From a virus (Duplodnaviria > Heunggongvirae > Uroviricota > Caudoviricetes), in IMG/VR virus record IMGVR_UViG_2684623171_000008: DNA of 35,933 bases. One strand, given 5' to 3'. The notes under the pieces are model-generated. The model was not told where the DNA came from, searched no databases, and worked only from the letters and a program-made list of their open reading frames with translations. Made by a program: the position numbers and the translations under genes. Of the stretch, positions 2,778 through 34,760 are shown piece by piece; positions within the stretch are counted from its first letter, which is position 1; each line of letters opens with the position of its first letter.

Positions 2778-3962
2778 ATGAGTGAAACTCGTTTTCATGG
2801 TGCCCGTGTTACGGAAAATACCGACCTGGTAACAGCGATTAACGATGTTGATTCCAGCGTTATCGGTATCGTGGCAACGGCGGATGATGCGGACGCGAAG
2901 CTGTTCCCGCTGAACAAGCCCACACTGCTGACCCGCGTCAATGACGTGCTGGGAAAATGCGGAACAACGGGGACGCTTTATCGTGCGCTTAAGGCCATCG
3001 CAGACCAGGTGAGCACAAAGGTGATCGTCGTTCGCGTGGCTGAACACAAAGAAGAAGACGGAAAGACGCAGGATCAACTGGTTATCGGTGGTTCTGAGGA
3101 TGACGGCAGCTATACGGGGATGTATGCGCTGCTTGTTGCAGAACAGGATGAAAGCATCGGATACCGTCCGCGTATTCTGGCCGCGCCGGAGCTGGACACG
3201 GAGGCGGTGACAAAATCCCTGTGCGTGATTGCGGGTAAGCTGCGCGCGTTTGTGTATGCCTCATGTCACGGCTGTAACACGATGGCTGAGGCGATTACCT
3301 ACCGCCAGAAATTCAACGAACGTGAGGTGATGCTCTTATGGCCGGACTTCATCGCCTACAACCCGAAAAGTGGCAAAAACGAAACGTTCCCCGCGCCTGC
3401 CTATGCGTGCGGCCTTCGTGCGTACATTGACCATGAGCAGGGCTGGCACAAATCGCTGTCCAACGTTCCGGTTAAAAATGTGCTGGGAATGTCCAGGCAT
3501 GTGTTCTGGTCGTTGCAGGCCGAAGACAGTGATGCCAACAGCCTCAACAACAAAGAAATCACGACCATTATTCGTCGCAACGGGTTCCGCTTCTGGGGCA
3601 ACCGCACACCGGAAACGAACGCCTACATCTTTGAGGTGTATACCCGAACCGCACAGGTGCTGGCTGATTCAATTGCGGAAGCGCAGTTTGAAACCATCGA
3701 CAGTCCACTGACGCCTGCGAACGTGAAGGATGTTATCAGTGCCATCAGGGCAAAACTGGATTCACTGGTTACTGCCGGGAAACTGATTGGCGCGTCGTGC
3801 TGGTATGACGTGGTGGATAACAGCACCACGGATTTACGTCAGGGGCGTGTGCGTATTCGCTACAAATATACGCCCGTTCCTCCGCTGGAAGATATGGAGC
3901 TTTACCAGACGTTTACTGATGAATACTTTGATCCCGCATTTGCGGTGTTGGGAGGTGTCTGA
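2778..3962 (+). CDS. FI: Contractile tail sheath protein FI
   Basis: 394 aa; conserved P2 FI stretches (FPLNKP, LRAF.YAS, GWHKSLSNV, RRNGFRFWGNRT, YTPVPPLE). Confidence 0.9.
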   Translation: MSETRFHGARVTENTDLVTAINDVDSSVIGIVATADDADAKLFPLNKPTLLTRVNDVLGKCGTTGTLYRALKAIADQVSTKVIVVRVAEHKEEDGKTQDQLVIGGSEDDGSYTGMYALLVAEQDESIGYRPRILAAPELDTEAVTKSLCVIAGKLRAFVYASCHGCNTMAEAITYRQKFNEREVMLLWPDFIAYNPKSGKNETFPAPAYACGLRAYIDHEQGWHKSLSNVPVKNVLGMSRHVFWSLQAEDSDANSLNNKEITTIIRRNGFRFWGNRTPETNAYIFEVYTRTAQVLADSIAEAQFETIDSPLTPANVKDVISAIRAKLDSLVTAGKLIGASCWYDVVDNSTTDLRQGRVRIRYKYTPVPPLEDMELYQTFTDEYFDPAFAVLGGV

Positions 3963-25798: not shown

Positions 25799-25912
25799 CG
25801 TTTACGGGATTCTGAAATCCCGTTTTTGCCTGTTTTGTGCGCGCCTCATATATCGCTGCGCGTTTTTTGCTCATTTACGGGATTCGTGAGTCCCGTTTCT
25901 GTCTGTTTTTTG
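25799..25912. repeat. Two ~41-bp direct repeats, each with an 8-bp-stem hairpin, upstream of parM (candidate parC-like centromere/operator)
   Basis: Repeat 1 at 25799-25839 and repeat 2 at 25872-25912 (TTTACGGGATTC..TCCCGTTT..CTGTTTT), 73 bp apart; repeat 2 lies in the last codons of gene A. Confidence 0.45.
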
Positions 25913-28686
25913 TTTCCACTGGTCAGGCCACCCCGCAGCAGGTCTGCTTTGCGGCTGGCGCGTTCAGTGGTTTCACTGATTCTCTGTGCGTGCTCTGCGT
26001 CGCGGATGGCGCGCAGCATGTCAGAAAGCACGGTAACGGGTGTTTTCATGGTGTTCTGGTCCTGCTGAAGTGTGGATGCCAGGCGTGCGGCGGCTTCAGG
26101 GTCTGATGCCCCCAGCTGTGCCAGATAGCTGGCGACCGGGTTATGGCGGATCTCCGTGCTGCTTACGCCATGATTACGGCTCAGACGCTGCCAGAGCTGC
26201 GTGATTCGGCTGTCCGGGCGGGTATCCGGTTTGCGTACAATTTCAAATCCCTGCGGTGCAATGATGCTGCCGTCAACGTACAGACTGCCGCCCCGTAACA
26301 GGTGCTGCATCTGTTGTTCACCGATATGCAGGCCGAGAGATTCAGCAGACTCCCGCCATTCTTTAGCGAGTAACTCGTGGTTATCAGGCAAAGGCCGCTG
26401 CTGTTTGCGGCTCTGTGTCCAGTTCTGCATTTCATCGCTGCTGTTTTTTGCCTGTTTGTCACGAAGCGAACGCATCAGCGCCCGGCGTTCGTGCCGTTTC
26501 AGTGAGCGCATCCATTCATTTACTTCAACGCCGTCAGGAAGCTGCGGCCACGGTGCTGGCCGTTCTTCCGGCTGTTCTGTCCCGTTGTTGCCTGTTTCCT
26601 GTACACGGGGACAGTTATTGCCACGAGTCCAAGGGGCGGCAGGGCCGCCCTGAAGGTCAAAACCATTTTCGCGGGCGCTGTCTTCCGCTTCCGGTTTGCG
26701 TCTTACCAGCTTCCAGTTATCCGGATGCGTGCATACGCGGGAAGACTCCCCAATGAGCGGCGACCAGATCCCGTAAATCTGTACGCTCTGTTCACCGTAA
26801 TCGTTCAGCTCATCTGCGAGGTCGTAGGCGGTGCGAATCAGGTAGTCTTTGCGTGGAACAAGTACGCCACCCTGTTTCTCAATGTAGGTGGCAAAACATC
26901 CGGCATCAGCGGCAGCGAGTACCGCGTCCATTGCGTCATCCTTCAGCCGTTGCGGGCCTTCCGGATTGCGTGCCATCTGGCTGGCAAGGCGGCGCAGTTC
27001 ACGCCACACCTGACGGGAGGGGATGCCAAAGAACTGGAACTGACGGACCCGGTGAAGGCGCGCCCAGCCGATGGCGCGCTCCACGCTCTCGGCCATTGAT
27101 TTACCTGTTTCGTGGTCAACGCGTGGCTTGCCCGTTTTCGGGTCGATGCCATCCACGGCGCGGCTGTCCAGGTTCTTTCCGATGTAGGTGGCGATGTAGC
27201 TGGTTGGCGTGCCTTTTGAGCCGTCGACGTACTCCGCCTTAAAACGCGGAGTTATGTCATCGCCCAGCTCGTGGCGGTCTTCCTGAATGGCAATATCGCA
27301 GACGTGGGACACGATGGTTTCAATCTCGTCCGGATGTGCAAAGACCATCATATGCCAGTGCACAGTGCCGTCATGGTGAGGCTCCACCGTGCGGATGCCA
27401 TACCAGCGCAGGCCGTCGCGGTTCAGTTTTTTGCGGACCGCCGCAAAAAACGTGTTAACCAGGTAATCGCTGGAGTCGCGCATTGTGGCCCCGTTCCATT
27501 TGGGATTCGGATGACCGTTCTCCGTTGTTGCGTGGTATTTTGACGGGCAGGTGACAGTCAGAAACACCGCTCTGTCGCCACGGGCTTCGGCCAGAAGTTC
27601 CAGCCCCTTCATGGTGGCCATCATTTCTGCCTTACGGTGAACCGGGTTACTTACTCCCGCGTAATACACCGTCTCGAGATCAATCGTGAACCCGTCTTCA
27701 TTTTCCAGCATGAAACTTTTCAGGAAATCGCGTGTTTTCTCGCGCTGTGCGCGAAACTCGCTTAACGCGTCCTGGCTCAGATAGGGTGATGTTTTTCTGG
27801 AAACCAGACAGGCGGCGCGGAGTTGTTCTTCCCGCCACTCGCAACGTAACAGCCACAGTTTGCGTTTCCACCATTCCGCACAGGTCAGGCGAAGGATTGC
27901 GCCCGGCAGCAGCTCCGTGTCCGGTTCGTTCCTCCGGTCTTTGTCTGTTGTCAGTGCGTCATAATGTGGAGGCATGGCGTGCAGGTGTAACGCCATGCGG
28001 GCCAGCATCTGATACGCCTTCAGCGTTACATCCATGGTCAGCTCACCATCGGTCGCGCCAAAGCCATCGCAGAGTTTTTCGAAGGTGCTGCTGAACATCG
28101 CCGCCGTCATGGTGGCCAGCGTCTGTATCTGGTGCTTGTTGAGCTGCGGCAGGTAAAGCAAATCATCCAGGCGTTCGCGTCCGGCAAGGGAGCGATAACC
28201 CGGTGTCAGCCAGCGGTGGTCGGTGCGGTCCAGGCGTTCGAATATTTTGCGCAGGGTTCCGCGCGCGTAGCGTTCAGCCTGCCAGCTCTTTTTGCCTTTC
28301 TGGCGATCGGCTTCCTGTTTTTTGCGCAGGAAAGAGAGGTGGCGGCTCAGAGGTTCACGCAGATAAACGGGAAGCACCTTCAGTGTGGCAAAAGCACGGG
28401 CCACCGGGTCTTGTTCTGTTGCCTGACGCTTGCTGATGATGCTTTGTGCCAGCTTTTCACGCTGTCCGGCTTCCTCAAGGGATGCCATGAGTTTTTTACC
28501 CACGGTGGATTGTGCGAAAAAGGCTTCCTCCTTCGCTTCCTGTTCTTCCAGAGCCTTTTTGTCTGCCTCAAGGTAGTAACGGATGGCGCGTTGCAGGTCG
28601 GTTTCAGTTTCCTGCCTGTGCTCCGTAAATCTGGCCGGATCAATGGCTGGCCGTGGTTCATTCCAGCTCCATGCAAACTCATTCAT
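25846..28686 (-). CDS. A: Rolling-circle replication initiator A (P2 gpA-like HUH endonuclease)
   Basis: About 946 aa; HWHMMVF (HUH) motif and downstream Tyr-containing region; ATGA coupling to the upstream ORF. Longer than P2 gpA as recalled from memory. Confidence 0.85.
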   Translation of the reverse strand: MNEFAWSWNEPRPAIDPARFTEHRQETETDLQRAIRYYLEADKKALEEQEAKEEAFFAQSTVGKKLMASLEEAGQREKLAQSIISKRQATEQDPVARAFATLKVLPVYLREPLSRHLSFLRKKQEADRQKGKKSWQAERYARGTLRKIFERLDRTDHRWLTPGYRSLAGRERLDDLLYLPQLNKHQIQTLATMTAAMFSSTFEKLCDGFGATDGELTMDVTLKAYQMLARMALHLHAMPPHYDALTTDKDRRNEPDTELLPGAILRLTCAEWWKRKLWLLRCEWREEQLRAACLVSRKTSPYLSQDALSEFRAQREKTRDFLKSFMLENEDGFTIDLETVYYAGVSNPVHRKAEMMATMKGLELLAEARGDRAVFLTVTCPSKYHATTENGHPNPKWNGATMRDSSDYLVNTFFAAVRKKLNRDGLRWYGIRTVEPHHDGTVHWHMMVFAHPDEIETIVSHVCDIAIQEDRHELGDDITPRFKAEYVDGSKGTPTSYIATYIGKNLDSRAVDGIDPKTGKPRVDHETGKSMAESVERAIGWARLHRVRQFQFFGIPSRQVWRELRRLASQMARNPEGPQRLKDDAMDAVLAAADAGCFATYIEKQGGVLVPRKDYLIRTAYDLADELNDYGEQSVQIYGIWSPLIGESSRVCTHPDNWKLVRRKPEAEDSARENGFDLQGGPAAPWTRGNNCPRVQETGNNGTEQPEERPAPWPQLPDGVEVNEWMRSLKRHERRALMRSLRDKQAKNSSDEMQNWTQSRKQQRPLPDNHELLAKEWRESAESLGLHIGEQQMQHLLRGGSLYVDGSIIAPQGFEIVRKPDTRPDSRITQLWQRLSRNHGVSSTEIRHNPVASYLAQLGASDPEAAARLASTLQQDQNTMKTPVTVLSDMLRAIRDAEHAQRISETTERASRKADLLRGGLTSGNKKQTETGLTNPVNEQKTRSDI

Positions 28687-29072
28687 GGCTGGTATCCCGT
28701 CACGCGCTGCCACTCCTGCGAGAAGAGGGCAGAAAGGCGGTTAAATTCAGCGGTGTATTCACTCAGCGAGGCACACCCGCCAGCAGTGCGATGCGCCAGC
28801 ATTGCCGCAAATACGGAGGCCGGGGAGTCGTAATACGCCAGCAGTGATTCTCCGTGTGGTGTCAGGCAGTGCAACGCCAGCCCGTGTGGTGTGAAGTCCA
28901 CGCGGTAGCAGTCGTCTACTGTGAAATAAAGGGTGTCTGCATTCTCCGGTTTTGTGGTGCGTGCTCTGTTGTCACGACCACGGATGTAGAGATCAAATAA
29001 TCCCTGAAGAACGGGAGCCAGACGGGTGTCCTGTGTGCGCACCCATCTTGTGAAGTCATGAGCGTCAATCAT
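28683..29072 (-). CDS. Hypothetical early-operon protein (129 aa)
   Basis: Translationally coupled to A (ATGA overlap). Confidence 0.45.
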   Translation of the reverse strand: MIDAHDFTRWVRTQDTRLAPVLQGLFDLYIRGRDNRARTTKPENADTLYFTVDDCYRVDFTPHGLALHCLTPHGESLLAYYDSPASVFAAMLAHRTAGGCASLSEYTAEFNRLSALFSQEWQRVTGYQP

Positions 29073-29144
29073 GCTGCAATTCTCTTTACTACAGATGTGC
29101 GAAGGCCTCCCGCCGCAAGGTGCAGGAAAGGCCCGGAACAGGAA

Positions 29145-29375
29145 TTAATGGGGTTTGTTTTGCTGCTCGATGAGCTGCTGAAGCTCGCGCAGATCATCCG
29201 CCAGATAGCTAAATACTGCGGCGGAGTAGGCGTTTGACAGCACGTGGCTGTGCTCATGTGACATGTTGATGAACATGATACGAGCGACGCGTGATGCGCG
29301 GTAAAGTCTGCGGTTGATTTCAGTCTGGATGTGACGACGCGCAGCGTATGCGCGCTGTTGTTTGCGGTTTGCCAT
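29145..29375 (-). CDS. Hypothetical early-operon protein (76 aa)
   Basis: ORF in the early operon downstream of a structured non-coding region. Confidence 0.35.
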   Translation of the reverse strand: MANRKQQRAYAARRHIQTEINRRLYRASRVARIMFINMSHEHSHVLSNAYSAAVFSYLADDLRELQQLIEQQNKPH

Positions 29376-29552
29376 GGGGTGGCCTCTTTGGTTGTAAGTT
29401 TTGAAAACTCACCATCCAGAGGTGGAAAACTCGGGGTGGTGAGACGTACAGGGTTTCCACAACCGGCAACCAAAGAACCCGGCCCGACCGAAGTCGGCCC
29501 TGTACGCCCCACCATAATTCGTGTGCGAAAAAGACGTGGCGATACGGTACGC

Positions 29553-29576
29553 ACAAAAAAACCGCTGGCGCGGTTG
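29553..29576 (-). terminator. Rho-independent terminator-like hairpin within the early operon
   Basis: AACCGC-TGGC-GCGGTT hairpin followed on the minus strand by a U7 run. Confidence 0.45.
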
Positions 29577-29697
29577 TGCGCTTTGGTTGTCAGCGGGGTG
29601 GAAATCCCGGCACCCGTTTTATGAGGTGCAGCGGAAATGTAACCTGACTGATTGCGGCATGGCAAGCGGTTTTTTTGTGTGTGCATGTTCTGGTTTC

Positions 29698-29997
29698 TTA
29701 CTGGTTCAGAAAAAAATCAAAAACCTTGTCAATGCGTTGCAGCAGCTCTTGCTGTATTGCTTCCGGCGTTTCCGGTTCGCCCGGCGCCTCCAACGTCGCG
29801 CAGAAATCAGCGATTTCATGATGGAGCGTCAGGCGAATGGCAGGAGCCGTGGTTCTGGCGTGCTCCAGCTCATTCAGCAGTGCCAGCACAGCAGACGGCG
29901 AGAGCATTGCGCGAAATGCCAGTAATTTTTGAGGCGTTGCCATTCGTTGCAGGGCAAATGCCAGTTCGCGTAGCTTCTGGTGGTTGATGGTGCTCAT
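29698..29997 (-). CDS. Hypothetical early-operon protein (99 aa)
   Basis: ATGA-type coupling with the upstream ORF. Confidence 0.45.
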   Translation of the reverse strand: MSTINHQKLRELAFALQRMATPQKLLAFRAMLSPSAVLALLNELEHARTTAPAIRLTLHHEIADFCATLEAPGEPETPEAIQQELLQRIDKVFDFFLNQ

Positions 29998-30260
29998 GCT
30001 CTGGCTTCCTTCAGTAGCTGGTTAAACATGTGAGTAAGTGGATTGCTACACCCGAACGGCATCGGGTTTACGTGGTAAGAAGCCTGGCCTCCTGTTTTGC
30101 GAGCGCGACCACCTGTGCTGCGGTTTGTTCTGATGACTAAGCCGCCGCGCCAAAGTCGGCGTAACTCAGCATTAATGGCTGTGGTTGGGGTATTCAGTGC
30201 TGCGGCGATCTCTCCGCCGCTACACCCCGGATGAGTAGCGATGTAGTCCAGAATGGTCAT
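29994..30260 (-). CDS. Hypothetical small protein, possible winged-helix DNA-binding fold (88 aa)
   Basis: Translationally coupled on both sides; the fold assignment is a guess from sequence character. Confidence 0.4.
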   Translation of the reverse strand: MTILDYIATHPGCSGGEIAAALNTPTTAINAELRRLWRGGLVIRTNRSTGGRARKTGGQASYHVNPMPFGCSNPLTHMFNQLLKEARA

Positions 30261-30460
30261 CTGCGTGGCTCCTGTACCTGTCGGATAAGATTTACTCGCG
30301 CCACGTTGGTGGCGCAGAAGTAAGTGCCGTCAGTGAGGTAGATGTGGTGTGCATCCTTTTCCGAACGATGTTTGTCGATAGTGGTAATCAGGCGTTCGTC
30401 GACCTCGTATTCGCGCCCTCTGGAGGTAAAGCGAACGACGGGAAAATGCTTAATTGCCAT
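30257..30460 (-). CDS. Hypothetical early-operon protein (67 aa)
   Basis: Coupled to the downstream ORF. Confidence 0.4.
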   Translation of the reverse strand: MAIKHFPVVRFTSRGREYEVDERLITTIDKHRSEKDAHHIYLTDGTYFCATNVARVNLIRQVQEPRR

Positions 30461-30483
30461 TGCGCCCCCTTTGTCCAGTAACC

Positions 30484-30837
30484 CTATGCGTTAAATACGG
30501 CACGTTGCGCGTCATCAATGAATACAGCTTGAGAGCGTTCTATCAGGCGGAGATTTGTCAGAAGCTCTGACTCTTTTGTGTGGTAAGGCGTTATCAGGTA
30601 TTTGCCGTGCAGTTCGGCAATAATGGTGTATTGCGTCATTATTGCCGAACCAAGAATGTAAATGCGGCGTCCAATGCTGGACGGATTCATGGCTGCAACT
30701 GTTGACTGTGTTTTAAGAGTATCGATTTCTTTGCCCTGTTCCTCAATAATTTTGGCTGCGTCAGCGGTGATTTTTGCAATGGTCAGTGCGTGAAGTGCTG
30801 CCATATGTTGGCTACGCTTCACGGCATCTTTAGCCAT
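30484..30837 (-). CDS. Hypothetical early-operon protein (117 aa)
   Basis: First gene after the AT-rich intergenic region containing a T9 tract. Confidence 0.45.
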   Translation of the reverse strand: MAKDAVKRSQHMAALHALTIAKITADAAKIIEEQGKEIDTLKTQSTVAAMNPSSIGRRIYILGSAIMTQYTIIAELHGKYLITPYHTKESELLTNLRLIERSQAVFIDDAQRAVFNA

Positions 30838-30993
30838 TTCATCTTCCGCTTCTGATATTTTTTTTTAATGTGTCGATAATGCCTTCTTCTTTTGCTTTCA
30901 TTTTATATCTCCGTTATTTACGCGTGCGAATACCTCCATTAATACGGATGGTTTTCACGTTTTCTTATTTAATTTGATGTTTTATTTGTATCG

Positions 30994-31107
30994 TTATTCA
31001 TCAGAGAAAAAACGCTCGATCTTTTTCACTGAATTAATAATTCGCATAATCCCAATGGCGCAGACCACCGAAATAATCAGAACAAGCCATGAGATAAATA
31101 TACTCAT
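30994..31107 (-). CDS. Small hydrophobic peptide (36 aa, MSIFISWLVLIISVVCAIGIMRIINSVKKIERFFSDE)
   Basis: Own translation; ATG overlaps the stop of the upstream 81-aa ORF (ATGA coupling); single predicted TM helix. Confidence 0.35.
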   Translation of the reverse strand: MSIFISWLVLIISVVCAIGIMRIINSVKKIERFFSDE

Positions 31108-31349
31108 GCGATATTTCCCAGCTTATACGGTTCAATATGTTCCCCGCATTCTGCGGCACAGATCAGCTCGGAAAGTTCGTTAAGTGCATCCAGATCATCA
31201 GCGTAAAAAGCCACGTCATACAGACTTCGGATTGCTCTGGTCAATGAGTCACGGGCCGCACGTTCAGCATGAGCGCCTGATGCACTTAAGCGAAAATAAA
31301 AACGCTCAAGTGCTTTGTTAATGAGAGTTTTATATTCTTTGCCCATCAC
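31104..31349 (-). CDS. Hypothetical early-operon protein (81 aa)
   Basis: ORF in the early operon. Confidence 0.45.
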   Translation of the reverse strand: MMGKEYKTLINKALERFYFRLSASGAHAERAARDSLTRAIRSLYDVAFYADDLDALNELSELICAAECGEHIEPYKLGNIA

Positions 31350-31357
31350 AACGCCCT

Positions 31358-31645
31358 TTAATCTGCTTTCTGTATTTCAGCTTCTGAATCCATACAAATA
31401 ATTTCGATATAGGGTTCATCGGCATTAACCTGGCGTGCCTTTTCAGCTTCGCTAATGATTTCTCGTACGGTCTGGTACGGAAGTTCCACAAGCAGTCGCG
31501 TGCCGTTCAGATAAACGTAAGTGGCTTCGTCGGTTCCGTTTTTACCCGCCGGAGTCACTCCGTCAATAGCGGATGCACGTAATAACAGTTCACCGCGAAA
31601 ATCAATAAAACGGATAAATACACCTTGTGCATGGTCTTTGGTCAT
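31358..31645 (-). CDS. Hypothetical early-operon protein (about 95 aa; start uncertain)
   Basis: The track ORF would overlap the upstream gene by 100 nt; internal ATG 31645 chosen. Confidence 0.35.
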   Translation of the reverse strand: MTKDHAQGVFIRFIDFRGELLLRASAIDGVTPAGKNGTDEATYVYLNGTRLLVELPYQTVREIISEAEKARQVNADEPYIEIICMDSEAEIQKAD

Positions 31646-32008: not shown

Positions 32009-32287
32009 TTATTTTGTCATCTGCACGTATTTTTCTGCGCTCCTGATTGTTTTCAGGAAAAGAGCGAAGAGATTTACTGTGCGTCTTGAGTTCTTTTCAT
32101 CCTGGTTGATGGGAATTGAACCTCTGTCAGCCTGTCTTTTCACTGTGTTAACAGCTTGGTTGGTACGCTTTGCGTAATCTTTCAGGCTTTCTTCAAGTAC
32201 TGGTAACCCATGCTCATCGCGGTAGGGATAGAACGCTGCTAAACGCTCAAAGTCTGCCTGTTCGTGTGTGTTCAGGACTTTTGCCAT
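32009..32287 (-). CDS. cox: Cox/Apl-like excisionase and early regulator (first early gene)
   Basis: 92-aa basic protein transcribed divergently from C with operators between; assigned by position. Confidence 0.55.
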   Translation of the reverse strand: MAKVLNTHEQADFERLAAFYPYRDEHGLPVLEESLKDYAKRTNQAVNTVKRQADRGSIPINQDEKNSRRTVNLFALFLKTIRSAEKYVQMTK

Positions 32288-32325: not shown

Positions 32326-32379
32326 GGTGTACTTATAAGTACACCTTGTGCGCAAGCTTAGTGTACTTATAGGAACACT
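32326..32379. promoter_or_regulatory. Immunity-switch operator pair: 20-bp perfect palindrome GGTGTACTTATAAGTACACC and related repeat AGTGTACTTATAGGAACACT
   Basis: Two related sites 34 bp apart (centre to centre) between cox and C. Confidence 0.5.
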
Positions 32380-32383
32380 GTCA

Positions 32384-32692
32384 ATGCTTATCGGTGAAAA
32401 AATTAGAGTGATTCGTGAATCAGAGGATTTAACGCGCGAAGAATTTTGCGGCCTGATTGATGTGCCTATCGGCACTTTGCGTCGTTATGAAACGGGGCGG
32501 ATTGAAAACATAGGGGGCGAAGTGCTTATCAAGATTGTTAATCACCCTCGCTTTTTTAAGTACATGAATTGGCTTATGACGGGAAAAACAAATGAGGCTG
32601 CTGGGCAGATCAGTCCGTCTCTCTCCCCTGATGGGCCAAAAAGCACATCGCCTTCTCAAAAACCCCGCAAGACTGGCACACAGCCCGGCTAA
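32384..32692 (+). CDS. C: Immunity repressor C (P2 C-like)
   Basis: Start at ATG 32384 (AGGAA RBS); GEKIRVIRESEDLTREEF...GTLRRYETGR HTH region resembles P2 C. Confidence 0.75.
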   Translation: MLIGEKIRVIRESEDLTREEFCGLIDVPIGTLRRYETGRIENIGGEVLIKIVNHPRFFKYMNWLMTGKTNEAAGQISPSLSPDGPKSTSPSQKPRKTGTQPG

Positions 32693-34222: not shown

Positions 34223-34760
34223 TGCAGCAAGAAACCTTTTCGGTAATTCAGCAGGTAGTATGTCGCATTCTGAGCGTGATGTGCTTTATCATGGCGGCGA
34301 TGGCGGCAGTAGTGGAGGCGGAATGTCAGATAAACTTGAAAGGCGAATTGAGCGACTCGAAGGTGATTTATCGCTAACAAGAAACGACCTTGCGACGCTT
34401 ACTGAACGCACTACAAACCTCTCAACCAAAGCTGATGTTGGTGAGGTGAAAGGTGAGCTCAAAGCAGACATTGCTCATCTGAAAGGTGATCTTAAATGCG
34501 ATATTGCGAATCTAAAAGGTGAGCTTAAATCTGATACAGCTCACCTGAAAGAGCAGCTCAAATCAGACATTAACAGCCTGAAGGGTGAGCTTACCGAAGC
34601 GATGGATAAACGCTTTGACAAGATTATGGATGAGATGAATCGGCGGTTTGACAAGGTTGATGATAATACGAAGTGGCGTTGGAGTGGCATTATTGTGCCA
34701 GTATGCACAACCATTTTCACGGCGGCGGTTGCTGTATTTGTTGCTAAATTTGTTGGCTGA
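34206..34760 (+). CDS. Coiled-coil protein with tandem 11-residue repeats and a C-terminal TM anchor (start uncertain; ATG 34323 has a GGAGG RBS)
   Basis: Repeats DIAHLKGDLKC / DIANLKGELKS / DTAHLKEQLKS / DINSLKGELTE; hydrophobic C-terminus IIVPVCTTIFTAAVAVFVAKFV. Confidence 0.5.
   Translation: MVKMGNAARNLFGNSAGSMSHSERDVLYHGGDGGSSGGGMSDKLERRIERLEGDLSLTRNDLATLTERTTNLSTKADVGEVKGELKADIAHLKGDLKCDIANLKGELKSDTAHLKEQLKSDINSLKGELTEAMDKRFDKIMDEMNRRFDKVDDNTKWRWSGIIVPVCTTIFTAAVAVFVAKFVG

Follow-up and report, generated by a model that had tools for sequence, protein, structure and literature searches.

A probable P4-type RNA anti-immunity module within the early operon of a P2-like prophage of the P88 type

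The immunity system of the satellite phage P4 is built on a pair of RNAs, the seqA leader, which corresponds to IsrK, and the CI RNA, which corresponds to the C4 antisense RNA (PMC3632133). Systems of this IsrK/C4 type are used also by P1, P7, N15, and some lambdoid prophages (PMC3632133; PMC2864571; PMC4825925), and the RNAs are represented by the c4 and c4-a1b1 motifs of Weinberg (PMC2864571). In P1 and P7, c4 blocks ant at its ribosome binding site, and the loop sequences define heteroimmunity (PMC12197685). In Gifsy-1, the parts are isrK, the C4-like STnc1160/orf45, and the anti-repressor gene anrP; Gifsy-1 IsrK acts in trans, and it is for Gifsy-1 IsrK alone that Hfq binding and trans-activation of the downstream anti-repressor are known (PMC4825925). 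Here, we analyzed a 35,933-nt stretch of viral DNA (IMG/VR record IMGVR_UViG_2684623171_000008; hereafter the window, numbered from its first letter), which is a P88-type P2-like prophage of the genus Xuanwuvirus. We report that a gap between two genes in its early operon very probably holds an RNA anti-immunity module of the P4 CI, P1 c4, N15, and Gifsy-1 IsrK kind. The region is a further member of a well-described RNA immunity family, and we did not find its P2-like context described: a full-text literature search for C4 antisense RNA together with "P2-like" returned no paper, and the papers on P88 and phiSM do not mention the module.

The gap spans positions 29376-29697 (322 bp) and has minus-strand open reading frames (ORFs) on both sides, with a 99-aa ORF upstream (29698-29997, minus strand, stop at 29698) and an epsilon-like gene downstream. 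A preliminary description of the window, made from its letters, had pointed to a non-coding region between two early ORFs, and such a region is present. We scanned the whole window with the Rfam covariance models, taking a score at or above the curated gathering score as family membership, and observed exactly two matches above threshold, both full length and both on the minus strand. The first was isrK (RF01394) at 29555-29629, with 64.3 bits against a gathering score of 50 (E = 1e-11), and the second was the C4 antisense RNA (RF01695) at 29432-29519, with 82.0 bits against a gathering score of 45 (E = 8e-15) and model positions 1-87 covered. The 88-nt C4-type RNA starts 35 nt after the end of the 75-nt IsrK-type RNA. 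The small RNA that the preliminary description had offered as one option is therefore borne out by the Rfam matches, in the form of two RNA genes, one IsrK-type and one C4-type. That description named no RNA family and missed the loop matches to the flanking target sites. Two further Rfam candidates were rejected as sub-threshold, namely a plus-strand match to IMPDH-RNA (17.7 bits versus 95.4) and a match to STnc410 (17.5 bits versus 50).

The C4/CI-type antisense RNA (29432-29519, minus strand) consists of a 17-bp closing stem around hairpin 1, which has a UUCG loop, and hairpin 2. Its minimum free energy (MFE) structure was identical to the Rfam structure, a closing stem around two hairpins. 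A repeat search recovered the closing stem as repeat I3, pairing 29437-29453 with 29498-29514. The 9-bp long-range stem reported earlier, with arms CGTACAGGG (29445-29453) and CCCTGTACG (29498-29506), is the inner portion of this longer stem, and the hairpin said to lie within it is indeed enclosed there, as CCGAC-UUCG-GUCGG at 29484-29497. The 88-nt minus-strand RNA folded at -46.4 kcal/mol (z = -3.9), and none of 200 shuffled sequences was as stable.

The IsrK-type leader RNA (29555-29629, minus strand), the counterpart of P4 seqA plus t1 and of the c4-a1b1 motif, is composed of hairpin 1, hairpin 2, and an intrinsic terminator. It is preceded by a sigma-70 promoter-like site, here called PisrK (29636-29665, minus strand), in which a -35 box TTGCCA (29665-29660) and a -10 box TACATT (29641-29636) are separated by an 18-nt spacer. 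The -10 box ends 7 nt before position 1 of the isrK model, and the predicted start falls at about 29629. The site was invariant among epsilon-type relatives in our alignments A2 and A3, and Rha-type relatives carry TTGACT-17-TATATT in its place. The homologous PisrK of Gifsy-1 is a promoter that has been demonstrated experimentally (PMC4825925). A LexA-box search gave a single match, which lies inside gene A and was taken as chance; we therefore assign no SOS box to PisrK. The terminator (29555-29575, minus strand), with an AACCGC/GCGGUU stem, a GCCA loop, and a U7 tract, was recovered by a terminator scan, by Rfam, and as helix 5; its stem, AACCGCGCCAGCGGTT, runs from 29575 to 29560 and its U7 tract from 29561 to 29555. 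In alignment A2, on which all formal pair counts were made and which covers 24 of the 28 loop types defined below, the IsrK helices were 99-100% paired, and both hairpin 1 and the terminator showed compensatory changes. The preliminary description had already placed a hairpin followed by U7 on the transcribed strand and had considered an attenuation point; both stand, the hairpin being the terminator of an IsrK-type leader and the counterpart of P4 t1. Its statement that the terminator follows the structured RNA has to be reversed. Transcription runs along the minus strand, the terminator lies 5' of the structured RNA, and it therefore ends a separate upstream RNA.

Two segments of C4 match sites on either side of it, all on the minus strand. 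The a' segment GUGGAAA (29454-29460), which is unpaired and links hairpin 2 to the closing stem, is complementary to a1 (UUUCCAC, 29598-29604) in the loop of IsrK hairpin 2, a match also found as repeat I5, and to a2 (UUUCCAC, 29422-29428) 3' of C4. The b' segment UUCUUUGGUUG (29467-29477), with the core UCUUUGGUUG, lies in the 12-nt loop of C4 hairpin 2 and is complementary to b1 (CAACCAAAG, 29581-29589) in the IsrK linker. Its second partner, b2 (CAACCAAAGAG, 29384-29394), overlaps the Shine-Dalgarno sequence AAGAGG, which lies 8 nt before the AUG (29375) of the epsilon-like gene. The 9-mer CAACCAAAG was expected 0.47 times in the window but occurs four times. The b1, b', and b2 sites account for three of these copies; the remaining one, at 34423, lacks an a-type partner in its vicinity and was taken as chance. 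The b':b2 duplex across the Shine-Dalgarno sequence is predicted at -20.9 kcal/mol, and in a modeled fold of the full read-through transcript b' is paired to b2 in cis.

If these matches reflect base-pairing between RNAs, loops and targets should differ together among relatives. In an alignment of five elements (the window, an ST131 P88-like phage, an Stx2 phage, N15, and P4), loops and targets changed together wherever they could be aligned; the core of b', for example, is UCUUUGGUUG in the window and UCUUGUGUAG in the ST131 type. A larger sample came from a scan of IMG/VR for the conserved C4 hairpin 1, which returned 120 DNA stretches. This specific pattern replaced a looser C4 pattern, which was rejected for returning stretches without module similarity detectable by nhmmer. 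The parsed set held 120 modules, including the window and a few loci fetched earlier, and 28 distinct (b', a') combinations. At fixed positions, cognate loops and targets gave complementary runs that averaged 7.1-9.0 nt; with non-cognate loops, the average was 4.4-5.0 nt. By formal count, six of the seven pairs of a1:a' (helix 3) and seven of the nine pairs of b1:b' (helix 4) had changed on both sides, with 99.4% and 98.6% of cells paired, respectively. For the sites 3' of C4, the corresponding counts were five of seven pairs for a':a2 (helix 8; 88.7% of cells paired) and six of eleven for b':b2 (helix 7; 86.7%), and part of the unpaired cells in these two helices is probably due to small shifts in the alignment. 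No shuffle out of 500 reached the observed covariation score, and slid controls were about 40% paired. Furthermore, b2 overlapped the Shine-Dalgarno sequence in every type examined. The C4 closing stem was 100% paired in the 24 types, with four pairs changed on both sides, and relatives carry the same pair of RNAs, with isrK and C4 at like spacing in P88, Shae_phiSM, the ST131 P88-like phage, the Stx2 phage, N15, and P4; the structure is thus conserved across related prophages, a check that the preliminary description had named. We also observed that the IMG/VR loci (L126-L245) have an identical C4 hairpin 1 yet 28 different (b', a') combinations. The independent assortment of a' and b' suggests modular exchange of immunity specificities.

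The gene that b2 precedes is the regulated gene of the proposed module. Its 76-aa product (29145-29375, minus strand) is homologous to epsilon, the anti-repressor ("derepression protein") of P4; it matched Pfam PF25738 "Derepression" with 33.1 bits against a gathering score of 27 and aligned to P4 epsilon with 35% identity over 51 aa (E = 5e-8). The pN/pS ratio in the epsilon-like frame was 0.44. A PDB sequence search with this protein gave no match. The next gene, orf129 (28683-29072, minus strand; phrog_3237), overlaps at its end the start of gene A (25846-28713, minus strand), which encodes a 955-aa P2-type replication initiator (PF05840, 432 bits), is annotated as a replication endonuclease, and is the last gene 3' of the module. 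The order is therefore PisrK, IsrK, C4, epsilon-like gene, orf129, gpA. Among the parsed modules, the first downstream gene was epsilon-like in 78, Rha in 32, and Bro-N/P22_AR_C in 5; in 4 modules it was a 64-aa P4-like ORF with no Pfam match. Save for that ORF, all first downstream genes are of the anti-repressor type.

Compared with the described systems, the locus is closest in layout to P4. In P4, too, both Rfam models match a single strand, with isrK (8692-8615) ahead of C4 (8507-8420), and the P4 order of PLE, seqA/t1, CI RNA, seqC, epsilon, orf151, orf106, and alpha parallels the order here. In both elements, the antisense RNA has targets on its two sides, a terminator lies between the promoter (a putative one here) and the antisense RNA, and an epsilon-family anti-repressor gene is followed downstream by a replication gene. 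The two nevertheless differ in their dimensions: IsrK and C4 are 35 nt apart here but 107 nt apart in P4, the epsilon gene starts 56 nt beyond C4 here as against about 245 nt in P4, and the epsilon protein has 76 aa here and 95 aa in P4. The module here sits in the middle of the Cox-side early operon, whereas that of P4 is at the start of its operon, and the replication gene encodes a P2-type gpA here but the alpha primase in P4. The element itself is a complete P2-like helper-type phage, whereas P4 is a satellite. We considered a P4-like satellite, as defined by an alpha primase-helicase, sid/delta/psu, and no structural genes, and rejected it: the replication gene is a P2 gpA gene, the relatives are complete Xuanwuvirus phages of about 36 kb, and only the immunity cassette is P4-like.

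The immI operon of P1 and P7 (P51, a1 b1, c4, a2 b2, icd, ant) has the same a1 b1 / b' a' / a2 b2 arrangement (PMC12197685), and both there and here b2 covers the ribosome binding site of the gene that follows. A P1-type immI operon was nevertheless rejected, as NCBIfam and Pfam gave no icd or ant matches 3' of C4. NCBIfam supplied no names for the small proteins, Pfam gave no Icd or Ant match for the 76-aa and 129-aa proteins, and the anti-repressor here is epsilon-type, not Ant. Gifsy-1 shares with the locus a terminated IsrK, an anti-repressor gene downstream, and, as predicted features here, a promoter of its own and read-through into a C4-like RNA, but Gifsy-1 is lambdoid and the element here is P2-like. 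In N15 (L004), isrK (2983-3058), C4 (3084-3171), and an annotated terminator are present, and the loop and target sites co-vary with those of the window; the downstream genes gp32-gp30 differ, and N15 is a linear plasmid prophage. The N15 anti-immunity locus makes a small processed RNA that controls icd/antA-C.

We observed the parts, their complementarity, and their co-variation directly; the further steps of the mechanism that we propose are modeled on P4, P1/P7, N15, and Gifsy-1. In a lysogen, PisrK would be active independently of the C repressor, and the majority of transcripts would stop at the terminator to give IsrK. Transcripts that read through would give C4, probably excised by RNase P. 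By pairing with a2/b2, C4 would occlude the ribosome binding site and block translation of the epsilon-like gene, and this block would probably also lower the expression of orf129 and gene A, either by loss of translation and polarity or by premature termination. Pairing of C4 with a1/b1 in the nascent leader would tune termination and in this way regulate the synthesis of C4 itself. Free IsrK may titrate C4, which would turn on the anti-repressor and favor induction, as in Gifsy-1. The loop sequences would set specificity, that is, the immunity type.

Several points weigh against this mechanism. We infer promoter activity, terminator efficiency, and the processing and stability of C4 from the sequence. 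The tail that follows the C4 closing stem is ACCC here rather than the GCCA of P4 and of Stx2 relatives, and recognition by RNase P is therefore not assured. The 76-aa protein is a putative antagonist of the phage's own C repressor. To reach the essential gene A from the early promoter, lytic transcription would have to pass the terminator. Finally, the sequence is compatible both with a C4 whose main effect is on translation, the P1 mode, and with one that chiefly affects termination, the mode of P4 and N15.

The alternative that survives best takes up this last point. With the same parts but a P4/N15-like output, C4 would chiefly be a termination factor acting on a1/b1 and a2/b2 in the nascent RNA, the module would form a second layer of immunity that gates gene A, and repression of the epsilon-like gene at the level of translation would come second. 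We regard this reading as possible but as the less likely account of C4. Briani and colleagues are reported to have described, in 2000, modulation of termination at P4 t1 by antisense RNA, and CI RNA reportedly enhances termination at t1 and t4 of P4 (attributed to the same group and, in 1995, to Sabbattini and colleagues). This CI-enhanced termination, cited in PMC3632133, favors a termination factor, as do the gene order, which matches the P4 left operon with gene A downstream in the same transcription unit, and the homologous N15 hairpin, which is annotated as a terminator. The overlap of b2 with the Shine-Dalgarno sequence in all types examined is, on the other hand, the signature of a P1-style translational block, and a scan of 28500-31500 found no second terminator between C4 and gene A. 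The termination and translational modes are in any case compatible rather than mutually exclusive.

We think it very improbable that the gap is instead a degraded "ash family protein" pseudogene, as called by PGAP in FRIK944 and in an ST131 phage, with its hairpins incidental. This protein would be read from a 205-aa ORF (29069-29686), of which residues 16-110 matched PF10554 Phage_ASH with 32.7 bits and which was open in 32 of 33 unique relatives. However, across these 33 relatives the pN/pS ratio of the frame was 1.08 over the RNA region, and it was 1.12 over the epsilon-like gene; a ratio of about 1.1, versus 0.44 in the epsilon frame, indicates that the frame does not encode a conserved protein. 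The variation sits in six short sites and preserves RNA pairing rather than amino acids, the ATG of the ORF (29686) lies upstream of the module's own predicted promoter, and isrK and C4 both score above curated Rfam thresholds. In P4 itself, a "cI protein" ORF overlies the locus that the P4 literature treats as the CI RNA (PMC3632133). The PF10554 match spans exactly isrK, C4, and their targets (29357-29641, minus strand). PHROGs 995, 821, and 6928 ("transcriptional regulator/repressor") also match the translation of the isrK-C4 locus. Phage_ASH, these PHROGs, and the "ash family protein" pseudogene calls of PGAP look like translated RNA genes. The reverse-strand "hypothetical protein" that the P88 GenBank record places exactly over isrK and C4 (L246, 5033-5221) is probably spurious. 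The identification of the module thus explains a region that is mislabeled in current genome annotation.

A related open frame of 148 codons (29069-29515, minus strand) starts from a conserved AUG at the 5' end of C4, crosses the epsilon-like gene out of frame, and terminates at an AUGA that overlaps the orf129 start codon. As a protein it is unconstrained, its pN/pS over the epsilon-like gene being 1.12, but it was open in all 45 unique genes versus 32% of synonymous-randomized genes. Gifsy-1 orf45, which likewise begins inside the C4-like RNA, is conserved in nucleotide sequence and not in protein, and it is AUGA-coupled to anrP (PMC4825925); the frame here may be its counterpart, a translational-coupling device. 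The two differ in that orf45 has 45 codons and is coupled to the anti-repressor itself, whereas the AUGA of the 148-codon frame is shared with orf129. Sequence relatedness could also account for the openness of the frame. In 28 of the 32 Rha-type modules, the reading frame that opens at the C4 AUG coincides with that of Rha, and database coding sequences called "Rha", "peptidase", or "regulator" are therefore extended over the RNA.

It is scarcely credible that the gap is plain operon punctuation or a recombination scar, an ordinary terminator beside a functionless stem-loop where two acquired blocks meet. P88 homology does begin at a mosaic junction (about 29680), upstream of which P88 and Shae_phiSM differ in their cargo genes. 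A mere scar is nevertheless excluded by the co-variation of loop and target sites within a module that is otherwise 87-97% identical across the genus, and the homologous modules in P4, N15, and Stx phages and the fixed arrangement of the promoter-like site, the terminator, the antisense RNA, and the Shine-Dalgarno sequence likewise speak against one.

The preliminary description had called the gap an insert and had suggested a boundary of acquired DNA. The boundary is present as the junction at the upstream edge of the module. The module itself belongs to the conserved core of the genus, and "insert" does not fit a module conserved in P88, P884B11, Shae_phiSM, and 939 E. coli genomes. A 901-bp query around the module (29100-30000) matched nine complete E. 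coli genomes at 100% identity; six of these are O157:H7, for instance FRIK944. Phages P88, P884B11, and Shae_phiSM, as well as the ST131 prophage, matched it at 87-97% identity. The module was present in about 1,300 of 5,426 complete genomes, including O157:H7. A common E. coli prophage family would thus carry an RNA-controlled epsilon-type anti-repressor, which bears on the induction of P2-like prophages and on their interplay with P4-like satellites and with prophages bearing similar modules. This kind of system is well known, and the gain lies in annotation and context and not in principle.

A 21-nt inverted repeat (repeat I2; arms 90% complementary) flanks PisrK and isrK. Its upstream arm, ACACACAAAAAAACCGCUUGC (29662-29682, minus strand), marks the outer edge of the conserved module, with its A7 tract just 5' of the -35 box, and its downstream arm (29549-29569, minus strand) comprises the 3' half of the terminator, U7, and GUGCGU. 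Both arms were almost invariant among relatives, and 50 of 52 unique epsilon-type (P2-like) modules, against none of 19 Rha/Ant-type modules, contained an exact complement of at least 10 nt. The upstream arm is contained only in RNA arriving from the early operon, and in the predicted MFE fold of that RNA the two arms pair around the whole of IsrK. Such pairing could let transcripts from the early promoter pass the terminator or be processed there, but as modeled it is kinetically doubtful. Besides such control of read-through, the repeat may serve as an RNase III site, an UP element, or a protein binding site. The upstream arm was rejected as a plus-strand terminator, as no hairpin directly precedes its T-run.

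Taken together, these features allow a broader speculation, to which we give rather little weight. P88-type phages would have placed an RNA immunity cassette of the P4 style midway in the early operon, where it gates both the epsilon-type anti-repressor and the essential gene A; with the 21-nt arm, transcripts from the early promoter could get past the terminator, or undergo cleavage there, while transcripts from PisrK stop at it, and the 148-codon frame could couple translation to gene A. If this holds, CI/epsilon modules would be exchanged between helper-type phages and P4 satellites, and loop types would define cross-talk groups among co-resident elements.

Further upstream, a C-type repressor gene (32348-32692, plus strand) faces a divergent Cox-like gene (32009-32287, minus strand), and all ORFs called as genes from the Cox-like gene down to 25846 are on the minus strand. 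Two operator-like palindromes, GGTGTACTTATAAGTACACC (32326-32345) and AGTGTACTTATAGGAACACT (32360-32379), lie between the repressor and Cox-like genes and presumably mark the Pe/Pc switch region. PADLOC returned nothing meaningful on the neighboring small proteins. On the minus strand at 30484-30901 lies a gene that RefSeq marks as frameshifted in the identical FRIK944 prophage; the intact 117-aa ORF at this position covers only positions 22-138 of phrog_9338. The interval between the Ead/Ea22-like ORF and the module is a hot spot for cargo (about 29680-29697 in the window, 3884-4914 in L246, and 2818-3369 in L247). At this hot spot, P88 carries two extra genes, one of them for an SPFH-domain protein, and Shae_phiSM carries an extra gene for a DNA-binding protein.

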